Sequence record: PP925844.1
DNA length: 64,000 bases
DNA from: Escherichia phage Elenatom
Direction: 5' to 3' (one strand)
The notes below the pieces were generated by a model. It was not told where the DNA came from and did not search any database. It was given only the letters and a program-made list of their open reading frames with translations. The translations under genes were made by a program, and so were the position numbers. Shown here piece by piece: positions 8,804-9,896 of the stretch; positions within the stretch are counted from its first letter, which is position 1; every line of letters starts with the position of its first letter.

Positions 8804-9274
8804 TTAATCATGTGTCCACACCCCATCGGTATTTGACCAAAGTCGCTGATTATCTGATCCTCGCCACAGCTTTTTGGTCGGAAGATTTTTCTCATACTTC
8901 CCATCAATAATAACATCAACATATTTAAGCATTTCTAGTTGTTTAATATCTTCAAACTTATATCCTGTCCACAACCAAATGTCTTTCTCAGGAAATCTTG
9001 CTTTAACCCAAGAAACTAAATTTGAAATCTCTTCTCGGTTCTGTGGATAAAGTGGGTCACCACCGGTTAAGGTAAGGCCTTGGATATACGATTTGCTTAA
9101 ATGGGACGCAAGTTCTTTAACGGTATTCATAGTGAATAACTGTCCGTTACGAGCATTCCAAGTACTACGATTATAACAACCTTCGCATTTATGCAAACAT
9201 CCAGTGACGAAGAGAACGACCCTACATCCAGGGCCGTTAACGAAATCGCATGGATAAATTCTATCATAATTCAT
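8804..9274 (-). CDS. nrdG: Anaerobic ribonucleotide reductase activating protein NrdG (radical SAM)
   Basis: N-terminus MNYDRIYPCDFVNGPGCRVVLFVTGCLHKCEGCYN; 156 aa from ATG at 9274; track N-terminal extension rejected. Confidence 0.9.
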   Translation of the reverse strand: MNYDRIYPCDFVNGPGCRVVLFVTGCLHKCEGCYNRSTWNARNGQLFTMNTVKELASHLSKSYIQGLTLTGGDPLYPQNREEISNLVSWVKARFPEKDIWLWTGYKFEDIKQLEMLKYVDVIIDGKYEKNLPTKKLWRGSDNQRLWSNTDGVWTHD

Positions 9275-9896
9275 CTTTATATTTCCAAGTATATCCCTTA
9301 TGAATAGATTGAATTCCTTTGCAACATTTATAAACAGCAGAATGAAAAAATCCTGCATTTCTTATTTCAGTTGCTCCAGTTAGTTCTATTGTATTTCCGT
9401 CTGGTGAATAGCCAATAACCGTTTTGGTGTTAAAGCGATTTCTAGAACTATTTTTGATATGCTCTTTATGACTAGTAGACAAAGTTCTTCCTGTTAGCCC
9501 ATCAGATATCCTTTTTCCAAAATCATCAGGAAGAGTTACTTTAGACCTAGCTATGCTCATTAGCTTCTTAGTTTTATCGCTTCTTTTTGCGCCACGCTGA
9601 TTTTCAAATTTCTTAGCTTTTGCATACGCGTATTGTGAAGAAGTAACTTTTCTATGCTTACTATTACTCATTATCCAATATGCATCATACATCTTTCCAC
9701 CATATATTTTAGCCAATAAATGGTGAGCAGTATAGTGGGCCTTATAAGTTAAAAATACTAAGTTGTCTAAATCATCTGAACCACCCATACTTCTTGGAAT
9801 TATATGATGAAGTTCATACCCGGCTTTAGTTTGACGGGGCTTAGATGGGTGTTCAGCAGAATTAACTAGATTTGAATAGATTCTGTCATAATTCAT
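9264..9896 (-). CDS. HNH homing endonuclease (mob-like), inserted between nrdD and nrdG
   Basis: 210-aa ORF; HNH motif ELHHIIPRSMGGSDDLDNLVFLTYKAHYTAHH; ATGA overlap with nrdD stop and 11-nt overlap with nrdG start. Confidence 0.85.
   Translation of the reverse strand: MNYDRIYSNLVNSAEHPSKPRQTKAGYELHHIIPRSMGGSDDLDNLVFLTYKAHYTAHHLLAKIYGGKMYDAYWIMSNSKHRKVTSSQYAYAKAKKFENQRGAKRSDKTKKLMSIARSKVTLPDDFGKRISDGLTGRTLSTSHKEHIKNSSRNRFNTKTVIGYSPDGNTIELTGATEIRNAGFFHSAVYKCCKGIQSIHKGYTWKYKDEL

Follow-up and report, generated by a model that had tools for sequence, protein, structure and literature searches.

In Escherichia phage Elenatom (record PP925844.1), a 64,000-nt stretch of which was analyzed as a whole (hereafter the window), nrdD is located on the minus strand at 9893..11710 (605 aa; Pfam NRDD, E = 1.2e-171) and is followed by a 210-aa HNH homing-endonuclease gene at 9264..9896 (minus strand) and then by nrdG. 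The ATG of the HNH gene (9896..9894) overlaps the nrdD stop codon TGA (9895..9893) as ATGA (9893..9896), and its own stop codon (9266..9264) lies inside nrdG, which starts at 9274, giving an 11-nt overlap; both junctions had been described in an earlier note made from the sequence, and the coordinates were confirmed. Nucleotide identity, Pfam, PHROG and a fold match together mark the ORF as an HNH homing-endonuclease gene, the orthologue of T4 MobC. T4 mobC and the window ORF share 99.8% nucleotide identity with a single amino-acid difference (S141N), and over the 1.7-kb region the window is 98.6–98.7% identical to T4, whose annotation names the ORF mobC. Judged by its sequence, ORF 9264..9896 is phage T4 mobC, a gene already named and annotated, and nothing in the gene itself is new. 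Phage Pinarejo is 100% identical to the window over the 1.7 kb compared; the window belongs to a T4-like coliphage.

The ORF matches Pfam HNH PF01844 (26.9 bits; cut-off 21.4) and, over residues 1–209, phrog_655 'homing endonuclease' (E = 3.9e-43), i.e., the family profiles of T4 Mob-class HNH homing endonucleases. The HNH catalytic core spans residues 28–58 (9723..9815, minus strand), and E28, H30, H31, N45, H54 and H58 are invariant in an alignment of 14 family members. The H-N-H motif, made up of a general-base His, a structural Asn and a metal-binding His, is intact, with these residues unaltered in 8 of the 8 mobC alleles compared; the alleles seen vary at only three amino-acid positions, and the ORF is intact throughout. 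Among C-terminal modules that would read DNA sequence (NUMOD or helix-turn-helix), a Pfam search at E ≤ 0.01 found no NUMOD in MobC; phrog_20162 matches residues 145–209. In the structural model, residues 3–12 form an N-terminal helix that is confidently modelled as a component of the fold, and residues 159–206 form strands and helices with a pLDDT of only 58–83. A sequence search against solved structures returned generic HNH-motif matches only, and the best PDB fold match of the model is I-HmuI (PDB 1U3E; Foldseek E = 1.6e-3, probability 0.96). For MobC, a 2010 review enters 'ND' under activity and 'unknown' under target, and it reports promoters for downstream genes embedded in mobC (PMC2988022). 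A late-promoter-like TATAAAT occurs at 9332..9326 (minus strand). A promoter and terminator scan of 8700..10300 was uninformative (6 promoter-like hits against 6.5 expected, 1 terminator-like hit against 0.8).

The window nrdD is one uninterrupted ORF, as previously noted: its nucleotides 1–536 and 539–1818 align (blastn) to the two T4 exons, and the ~1033-nt T4 intron with I-TevII, whose position corresponds to about 11172..11175, is cleanly missing. An Rfam search at E ≤ 1 across 8500..12300 found no family, group I introns included. The gene mobC is itself not an intron- or intein-encoded endonuclease, nrdG and nrdD being intact ORFs on both sides.

The start of mobC closely resembles that of nrdG. 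The left copy of a 21-nt repeat, ATGAATTATGACAGAATCTAT (9876..9896, minus strand), comprises mobC codons 1–7 and occupies the position of the nrdG start in empty alleles; the right copy, ATGAATTATGATAGAATTTAT (9254..9274, minus strand), comprises nrdG codons 1–7 and contains the mobC stop codon TGA (9264..9266). Both encode MNYDRIY, and the reported match of 16/18 over the first 18 nt was reproduced, extending to 19/21 over 21 nt. A search of the 64-kb window for this 21-mer with up to 3 mismatches found 3 sites against 0.03 expected by chance, and at the third of them (41269..41289, minus strand) a paralogous HNH gene (40633..41289, minus strand) opens with ATGAATTATGAAAAAATTTAT, 19/21 identical to the nrdG start. 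The repeat is therefore non-random but, with the paralogue start among its sites, not unique to nrdG. HNH-family genes that neighbour DNA polymerase B, or a lysozyme and a gp15-like gene, occupy unrelated loci and open MNYKKIY, MNYQKIY or MNYSKIY. Since MNYxKIY is an N-terminus typical of the HNH family itself, the repeat in T4 proves nothing alone; moreover, the left copy of Tequatrovirus carriers is 18/21 identical to the empty alleles of both genera considered here (Tequatrovirus and Jiaodavirus), so that a fusion is unreadable from T4-like phages alone. A literature search, which did not extend to Sandegren et al. 2005 (mobC/segH), found no description of a duplicated start at free-standing endonuclease genes.

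To place the insertion, the nrdD–nrdG region was compared across roughly 830–1086 phage records that contain it. Most align across the junction unbroken and represent empty sites; those of RB68, ADUt, KIT03, FriedrichMiescher, Pu-Krd-SF4 and T2H were inspected directly. Among 50,697 phage records, 31 have full-length mobC; identity is 99% or higher in each, and nothing falls between 90 and 99%. Presence is therefore polymorphic at a fixed site, with 31 carriers against hundreds of empty alleles, and the gene always lies at the nrdG start. The exact MobC protein occurs in at least 40 blocks of a public assembly index, always in an identical arrangement (24 contigs read); an IMG/VR scan with a 29-nt mobC-specific word gave no match. 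With the PF01844 and phrog_655 matches and the identity to T4 mobC, the empty alleles bear out the view that an HNH homing-endonuclease gene has invaded the anaerobic ribonucleotide reductase operon, and they speak against the possibility, raised in the earlier note, that all relatives carry the ORF. Several of the GenBank records retrieved have a mis-annotated nrdG start beside the insert: Wolf_ER13 has the gene too long, SHFML-11 and RB10 too short.

The carriers include three Klebsiella phages of the genus Jiaodavirus (Boboto, Wolf_ER13 and Shark_ER15), in which mobC adjoins a small upstream DUF7415 ORF, not nrdD, and no nrdD/nrdG junction exists. The mobC alleles of Tequatrovirus and Jiaodavirus are 98.4–100% identical (8 compared), with 99.5% identity for the gene behind the DUF7415 ORF, against window and Boboto backgrounds that are only 73.4% identical in nrdD and 67% in the downstream genes. 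A 2012 study saw no convincing evidence for cross-genus movement of free-standing endonuclease genes (PMC3468402); mobC offers a clean case, between Escherichia Tequatrovirus and Klebsiella Jiaodavirus phages. The ATGA overlap of the nrdD stop with the next ATG also occurs in T4 and in the empty Tequatrovirus alleles, and in 215Ecol030PP, SHFML-11 and BEU50 the nrdD stop is followed by 12 nt of spacer before mobC begins, without the ATGA overlap. Given these spacers and the DUF7415 context, the ATGA coupling appears to be a by-product of the use of the nrdG start and not a requirement for insertion, and the suggestion that the insertion had to preserve translational coupling is not sustained. 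On these alignments, the insertion site is the 5′ end of nrdG and not, as had been proposed, the nrdD/nrdG junction.

The Jiaodavirus phages also allow the two repeat copies to be told apart. The empty Jiaodavirus nrdG, downstream of the DUF7415 ORF, opens ATGAATTTCGACAGAATCTAC (MNFDRIY). In Boboto, Wolf_ER13 and Shark_ER15, mobC starts at the resident nrdG start with ATGAATTTCGACAGAATCTAT, 20/21 identical to the resident allele, and the downstream nrdG copy is only 16/21 identical to it. Codon 3 of mobC in these three carriers is the resident TTC (Phe), at a position where 90% or more of the family members have Tyr. A second HNH gene, encoding 278–279 aa and of the type found in Yersinia phage PST, lies at the nrdG start in both genera; it matches NUMOD1 and I-HmuI_NUMOD-like profiles, both below threshold. 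It opens with 39–40 of 40 nt of resident nrdG (MNYDRFYPCDFVN or MNFDRIYPSDFVN), and its downstream nrdG copy is 30–31/40 identical to the resident sequence. The 13 resident nrdG codons that it carries are missing from its relatives at other loci, which open MKNFKLDIN... or MKDLLKSKL.... Because the left copy tracks the resident allele in Jiaodavirus and the PST-type gene carries 13 nrdG codons, the duplication appears to be real, and the comparison suggests that mobC, like the PST-type gene, is fused in frame to the nrdG start and brought a replacement nrdG 5′ end along, which would explain the duplicated start. The earlier idea that the nrdG 5′ end was carried or copied thus survives on the Jiaodavirus and PST-type evidence; the 16/18 match from which it had been drawn does not by itself sustain it, given the MNYxKIY family N-terminus and the 19/21 match of the window paralogue. 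An HNH gene between genes 2 and 3 was considered as a parallel fusion and rejected: its T4 site is a 106-nt intergenic spacer, and it therefore looks conventionally inserted.

The downstream nrdG is itself composite. In identity comparisons, its nucleotides 1–114 (9161..9274, minus strand) represent the replacement 5′ end travelling with mobC: they are 98% identical to Boboto, compared with 77–83% for empty Jiaodavirus and 75–89% for empty Tequatrovirus alleles, and this sequence type, at 98% identity or higher, is confined to mobC carriers. Nucleotides 115–293 (8982..9160, minus strand) form a Jiaodavirus-like tract within a Tequatrovirus gene (92% to Jiaodavirus nrdG, 54–57% to empty Tequatrovirus alleles), and nucleotides 294–471 (8804..8981, minus strand) are ordinary Tequatrovirus sequence (97.8–98.9% to empty Tequatrovirus alleles, 71–73% to Jiaodavirus). 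There are 120 fixed differences between the empty Tequatrovirus and empty Jiaodavirus nrdG, and by these the nrdG of T4 and of the window is cassette-type over 1–114, Jiaodavirus-like over 115–293 and Tequatrovirus-like from 294; the run of Jiaodavirus-type informative sites extends to nt 293 in the window gene and to nt 297 in that of T4. In the Jiaodavirus carriers, foreign differences are clustered in nrdG nt 1–75 (Fisher p from 4e-9 to 2e-6), and foreign sequence is over by about nt 114, with none beyond. We read the three-part mosaic of the T4 and window nrdG as a co-conversion scar; together with the horizontal spread of mobC, such co-conversion is characteristic of homing endonuclease genes. 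One tract boundary, at nt 293 or 297, is common to nearly all Tequatrovirus carriers, a pattern consistent with one entry and later descent or ordinary recombination within Tequatrovirus. The idea that Boboto had simply received T4 DNA was considered and dropped, T4 nrdG containing the Jiaodavirus-like tract; on the sequence, a Jiaodavirus-like phage is the more likely donor of the cassette to the T4 lineage.

Taken together, we think it probable that mobC is a selfish HNH homing-endonuclease gene whose cassette sits in frame inside the nrdG 5′ end and not between genes. The mobC reading frame would now open with the start codon and the first seven codons of the resident nrdG; the rest of mobC (codons 8–210) and a replacement 5′ end of nrdG, about 114 nt long or longer, would make up the cassette. 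Because it would be opened by the resident nrdG start, mobC would inherit the translation drive of nrdG, supplied in T4-like phages by the ATGA overlap with nrdD. The replacement start of nrdG precedes the mobC stop by 8 nt, and translation of nrdG may depend on ribosomes that re-initiate once mobC has been read, or on a weak ribosome-binding site within the mobC 3′ end. In a mixed infection, MobC would nick or cut a mobC-less nrdG, probably within about nt 20–66, a putative target suggested by linkage: this block is identical in the empty alleles of the two genera, and carriers show cassette-specific synonymous changes there. Repair off the mobC-carrying genome would then copy the cassette and convert the adjoining nrdG sequence. 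For jumps between genera, the left join would have to form within the 21-nt nrdG-like segment, since the sequence upstream of nrdG is unrelated between genera, and the likeness of MNYxKIY to NrdG MNYDRIY probably made an in-frame join possible and harmless. On a more tentative view, the duplicate 5′ end would have three roles: it would restore the host gene, give jumps between genera a portable left homology arm and perhaps bring immunity changes. Judging by linkage, the cassette-associated synonymous changes possibly confer immunity, with Pu-Krd-SF5 as a counter-case. D10C in nrdG (codons PCC) was considered as a general immunity to SegH or the PST-type enzyme and rejected, because the segH carrier Pu-Krd-SF5 has an unaltered, empty-type nrdG 5′ end.

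Other readings of the locus account for parts of these data. If the insertion had been made at the junction, with a carried or copied nrdG 5′ end maintaining the coupling to nrdD, the ATGA overlap of T4, the window and the empty Tequatrovirus alleles would follow naturally, as would a genuine 21-nt repeat, and the intact nrdD/nrdG junction would be the target of the enzyme. Three observations make this improbable in our view: a 99.5%-identical mobC stands behind the DUF7415 ORF in Jiaodavirus, which has no such junction; 215Ecol030PP, SHFML-11 and BEU50 carry the 12-nt spacer in place of ATGA; and carriers retain the end of nrdD with 21 nt of nrdG after it, so a target confined to the junction would survive insertion. 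It could also be argued that there is no duplication at all, mobC being an ordinary free-standing gene between two genes whose family N-terminus happens to resemble NrdG, as the MNYKKIY, MNYQKIY and MNYSKIY relatives at unrelated loci, the window paralogue with its 19/21 start and the confidently modelled helix at residues 3–12 of the domain would allow. Such a resemblance leaves unexplained why codon 3 of the Jiaodavirus carriers is the resident TTC with the ATG exactly at the resident nrdG start, why the PST-type gene has 13 nrdG codons missing from its relatives, and how a pair of distinct HNH genes came to begin at the nrdG start in both genera, for which chance is no explanation; we regard this reading as unlikely.

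The remaining alternative, to which we assign a small though real chance, concerns the activity of the gene: mobC may be a defunct or domesticated remnant, spread by ordinary phage recombination and not by a nuclease activity of its own, and retained because the start, the ribosome-binding site and perhaps a promoter of nrdG now fall within it. The 'ND' entry for MobC activity and the promoters reported within mobC (both PMC2988022), the TATAAAT at 9332..9326 (minus strand) and the essentially single conversion-tract boundary of Tequatrovirus carriers would all agree with it. However, the alleles stay 98.4–100% identical from one genus to the other while the background is at about 70%, and the foreign tracts are short and close to the gene, a classic homing signature; the ORF is intact, with unaltered catalytic residues and 3 variable positions among all alleles seen; and at least 40 assembly-index blocks contain the identical protein with the same arrangement (24 contigs read). 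The comparison yields a concrete target prediction for MobC, an enzyme catalogued without a determined activity or target ever since the annotation of the T4 genome. "Free-standing" endonuclease genes may not always be intergenic, and some may sit in frame on the start of a host gene. That mobC and the PST-type gene represent a distinct phage homing-element architecture, in which an endonuclease lying in frame a few codons into a host gene takes over its start codon and translation signals and repairs it with a recoded duplicate 5′ end, is a tentative proposal for which we see somewhat less than an even chance. It would predict the MobC target at about nt 20–66 of nrdG and would make the textbook T4 NrdG an inter-genus chimera produced by homing. 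The fusion architecture may be a new detail of a gene that is itself known.

Among known systems, the closest is T4 mobC (NP_049689, earlier ORF 55.10), the same gene in the same place at 99.8% nucleotide identity and with one amino-acid difference, and with the same ATGA overlap with nrdD, 11-nt overlap with nrdG and 19/21 repeat. The window, which matches Pinarejo and is close to HP3, differs from T4 in that only T4 has the nrdD group I intron with I-TevII, and in that the Jiaodavirus-like tract of the window nrdG ends 4 nt earlier. [quoted passage not shown] Like mobC, these are promoter-less cassettes on a host operon with patchy presence, targeting conserved nucleotide-metabolism genes and co-converting flanking markers (PMC2988022, PMC2790892). 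They are, however, described as intergenic (PMC2790892), whereas mobC and the PST-type gene begin at the start codon of nrdG and duplicate its first 7 or 13 codons; SegH of RB10 and Pu-Krd-SF5 has no such duplication, beginning MHRYYIIYK with a stop codon that overlaps the nrdG ATG. I-HmuI of Bacillus phage SPO1 shares the HNH core with MobC, whose model suggests an elongated multi-module protein. Unlike MobC, I-HmuI is intron-encoded; the two have 17% sequence identity and a low global TM-score (0.23–0.26), and the HNH-motif residues of MobC lie at the N-terminal end in the secondary-structure map of the model, a further difference.

The mobile ORFs (mORFs) of fungal mitochondria, known from Allomyces macrogynus atp6 and from Glomus atp6, atp9, cox2 and nad3 (PMC3630166), offer a parallel outside phages. 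There, as in mobC, an endonuclease ORF lies in phase within a host gene together with a foreign replacement gene end, the native end persists alongside, and the host gene becomes a hybrid by horizontal transfer (PMC3630166). The replacement gene end that marks mORF-type elements is, by sequence, found here too: the left copy appears to be resident (20/21 for mobC, 39–40/40 for the PST-type gene), and the right copy cassette-borne (16/21 and 30–31/40 to the resident sequence, 98% identical between genera). The mORFs replace the 3′ end of the gene, i.e., the C-terminus, and encode LAGLIDADG or GIY-YIG enzymes in fungal mitochondria, whereas mobC is an HNH gene of phages, is neither LAGLIDADG nor GIY-YIG, and replaces a 5′ end; the native remnant is a dead fragment in mORFs and the first endonuclease codons in mobC. 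By analogy, mobC is an element that works like an mORF but no member of the mORFs, and the architecture of mobC and the PST-type gene may represent a 5′-end mirror image of the fungal mitochondrial mobile ORFs.

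In the window, gene 49 (endonuclease VII; 11707..12180), nrdD (9893..11710; 605 aa), a 210-aa ORF (9264..9896) and nrdG (8804..9274; 156 aa) follow one another on the minus strand. The nrdD stop and the ATG of the ORF overlap as ATGA, and the stop codon of the ORF coincides with nt 9-11 of nrdG, so that the two genes overlap by 11 nt. Over their first 21 nt, the ORF (ATGAATTATGACAGAATCTAT) and nrdG (ATGAATTATGATAGAATTTAT) agree at 19 of 21 positions, with MNYDRIY encoded by both; the earlier note had described the overlaps and the repeated start accurately. Searching the window with the 21-mer returned three sites at ≤3 mismatches, against 0.03 expected by chance. 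The repeat is non-random, yet the motif is not exclusive to nrdG, because the third site (41269..41289, minus strand) opens another HNH gene.

Across 1.7 kb the region shows 100% identity to Escherichia phage Pinarejo and 98.6-98.7% to phage T4, where the ORF is annotated as mobC, "homing endonuclease, H-N-H family", and where the same overlaps and the same repeat are present; the window protein differs from T4 MobC by one residue. The Pfam HNH match to MobC exceeds threshold, PHROG 655 "homing endonuclease" matches it with E=3.9e-43, and E28, H30, H31, N45, H54 and H58 are invariant throughout its HNH family. An AlphaFold model of MobC (mean pLDDT 75.5) has the HNH homing endonuclease I-HmuI as its top solved-structure match. 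The flagged ORF is T4 mobC, which a 2010 review of T4 mobile elements lists as a free-standing insertion between nrdG and nrdD, giving its activity as "ND" and its target as "unknown" and noting that other phages have the GIY-YIG gene segH instead (PMC2988022). The element itself has no novelty, and the finding as stated was already known; moderate interest is added by the fusion architecture, inter-genus transfer and testable target prediction described below.

Among the 830-1086 phage records with the region, nrdD and nrdG in most cases abut directly via the same ATGA. Full-length mobC was found in 31 of 50,697 records, all at ≥99% identity, with the 90-99% band empty. Its carriers are T4-like coliphages and three Klebsiella Jiaodavirus phages (Boboto, Wolf_ER13 and Shark_ER15), across which mobC identity is 98.4-100%; window-to-Boboto identity is 73.4% for nrdD and 67% for the downstream genes. 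An index of public assemblies has the exact window MobC protein in at least 40 blocks, and at each of the ten places inspected nrdD and nrdG flank it. Sequence comparison thus indicates that mobC is mobile by every comparative criterion. Of the earlier interpretation, the HNH homing-endonuclease class and the idea of invasion stand, while its insertion site and the weight it gave to a 16/18 match between the two starts do not.

That weight was misplaced because MNYxKIY is the normal N-terminus of MobC's own HNH family. Metagenomic homologues located by DNA polymerase B, by lysozyme with a gp15-like gene, and elsewhere start with MNYKKIY, MNYQKIY or MNYSKIY; the window paralogue between genes 2 and 3 starts with MNYEKIY and also matches the nrdG start at 19/21 nt; and in MobC the model places residues 3-12 with confidence in a helix of the domain. 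Since the motif is typical of the family, matched equally by the paralogue and predicted to be part of the domain, the left/right match seen in T4-like phages, taken alone, does not show copying. The paralogue (40633..41289, minus strand; phmmer E=1.7e-15 to mobC; phrog_655) is a free-standing HNH gene whose ATG shares ATGA with the stop of gene 2 (DNA end protector) and which has gene 3 (tail completion) on its other side. Of 513 related records, 36 carry it; T4 and T6 lack it and have a 106-nt spacer at this site. At an unrelated locus in a 173-kb metagenomic contig (L018), a MobC-family gene (2501..3106) starting MNYKDCY... overlaps the next, gp15-like gene (from 3096; MTYEFFY) by 11 nt via ATGACGTATGA, so that the mobC/nrdG overlap geometry and a loosely similar N-terminus recur there.

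Other genomes are more informative on the origin of the start. In the empty Jiaodavirus alleles (Merci, Nispero), nrdG lies behind a small DUF7415 ORF, not nrdD, and begins ATGAATTTCGACAGAATCTAC (MNFDRIYPSDFVNG). In the three Jiaodavirus carriers, mobC opens at exactly this coordinate with ATGAATTTCGACAGAATCTAT, a 20/21 match to the resident nrdG allele that includes the resident Phe codon, where at least 90% of the HNH family have Tyr. From codon 8 on, mobC is T4-type, as is the downstream nrdG copy (MNYDRIYPCDFVNG; only 16/21 to the resident). A second HNH gene (PST-type; 278-279 aa), which shares only the HNH core with MobC (38% identity), occupies the same site in 32 records. It opens with 13 nrdG codons matching the empty allele of its own genus at 39/40 nt (PST) or 40/40 nt (SmallBear, Roth19), whereas the nrdG copy downstream matches the resident at only 30-31/40. 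These codons are nrdG-derived, because relatives of the gene at other loci start with MKNFKLDIN... or MKDLLKSKL... By sequence, mobC and the PST-type gene thus show themselves to be in-frame fusions to the resident nrdG start, each cassette appearing to bring a replacement nrdG 5' end, with nrdG as the apparent attachment point and not the nrdD/nrdG junction named in the earlier note.

The ATGA coupling of mobC to nrdD is simply a legacy of nrdG; it is missing in Jiaodavirus and likewise in 215Ecol030PP, SHFML-11 and BEU50, which have a 12-nt spacer ahead of mobC. The 11-nt mobC/nrdG overlap is unremarkable, because in Moonvirus and Gelderlandvirus nrdD itself ends at the same TGA inside nrdG. 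In the genera of Citrobacter phage Merlin (L024, about 597) and Salmonella phage STML-198 (L023, 599), nrdG has GTG or TTG as its start codon, and the TGA made by nrdG codons 3-4 terminates nrdD, with the same 11-nt overlap; the geometry therefore predates mobC.

Typing of nrdG used 120 positions, each fixed within the empty Tequatrovirus and the empty Jiaodavirus alleles and differing between the two. In T4 and the window, nt 1-114 are closest to the copy in Jiaodavirus carriers (98%, against 75-89% to either empty type), nt 115-293 to Jiaodavirus (92%, against 54-57% to Tequatrovirus), and nt 294-471 to Tequatrovirus (98-99%). In Jiaodavirus carriers the foreign nrdG sequence is confined to nt 1 to about 114, and carrier-versus-resident differences are enriched in the first 75 nt in four of five (Fisher p 4e-9 to 2e-6). 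The simplest history would be that the cassette (mobC plus ~114 nt of nrdG) first resided in a Jiaodavirus-like phage and then entered the T4 lineage, dragging in a further 180 nt of donor nrdG. The T4 left copy fits such an origin and entry: it joins ATGAATTAT, of Tequatrovirus type at nt 8-9, to GACAGAATCTA, of Jiaodavirus type at nt 12, 16 and 18. In two metagenomic carriers nt 12 is instead T, as in Tequatrovirus, and these mixed types therefore imply joins inside the 21-nt segment in both directions. As nearly all Tequatrovirus carriers have the same right-hand tract boundary, the data point to one entry into this genus rather than many.

Genome comparison shows how the locus is built, that mobC has spread horizontally and that the flanking nrdG is mosaic. 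In a mixed infection, MobC would nick or cut a mobC-less nrdG, and repair would then copy the cassette into it. The candidate target, proposed by linkage only, is nrdG nt 31-66, a stretch without differences between empty alleles of the two genera. Here all mobC carriers examined deviate at sites that do not vary among eight empty alleles drawn from four genera: T4-type carriers at nrdG positions 33, 39, 51 and 63, all synonymous, and carriers of the PCC type (D10C) at 28-29, 42 and 63. Such changes are not universally needed at the locus, as one segH carrier has its nrdG start unaltered. Judging only by the 8-nt spacing, nrdG may be translated by re-initiation after mobC. A late-promoter-like TATAAAT of T4 type lies inside mobC (9326..9332, minus strand; 52 nt upstream of the nrdG ATG), just downstream of a weak terminator-like hairpin (9337..9356, minus strand); neither is above chance expectation, and the sigma-70 promoter and terminator scan was uninformative.

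As the earlier note had stated, nrdD in the window has no intron. The ~1033-nt group I intron of T4, which carries I-TevII and whose position corresponds to about 11172..11175 (minus strand), is cleanly absent, and nrdD identity to T4 is 96.1% on the 3' side of the site versus 98.3% on the 5' side. The intron and mobC assort independently: T4 has both, the window only mobC, and PST the intron with the other HNH gene. In RB10 (L011 2780..3627) and Pu-Krd-SF5 (L038 474..1304), segH starts with ATGCATAGG (MHR...), a 9-mer that empty alleles also contain, as the M-H-R codons close to the C-terminus of nrdD, and in segH-type phages a 16-nt insert (GGTAAAACGAGTAAAA) upstream of its ATG re-encodes that C-terminus (..VKRVKHA*). 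The altered end also occurs without segH in the mobC carriers 215Ecol030PP, SHFML-11 and BEU50 (L019/L020/L021, about 760..820); it may stem from a mirror-image fusion at the 3' end of nrdD or from recombination of segH with mobC genomes. Public nrdG annotations beside these inserts are inconsistent: the gene is too long in Wolf_ER13 (L006 2042..2596), starting at an in-frame ATG inside mobC equivalent to window 9358, and truncated in SHFML-11 (L020 1587..1913) and RB10 (L011 3702..4094). In Yersinia phage PST the PST-type gene is wrongly named mobC, and in RB10 segH goes under the name segD.

Free-standing endonuclease genes of T4 have been described as intergenic cassettes (PMC2790892; PMC2988022). 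Neither of these two reviews mentions an in-frame nrdG fusion, the 13-codon case, cross-genus spread or a chimeric T4 nrdG. The closest concept to the mobC architecture is the fungal mitochondrial mobile ORF, in which an endonuclease ORF lies in phase near the 3' end of atp6, atp9, cox2 or nad3 and brings along a foreign C-terminus as replacement (PMC3630166); the phage case differs in being its 5'-end mirror image, with an HNH enzyme.
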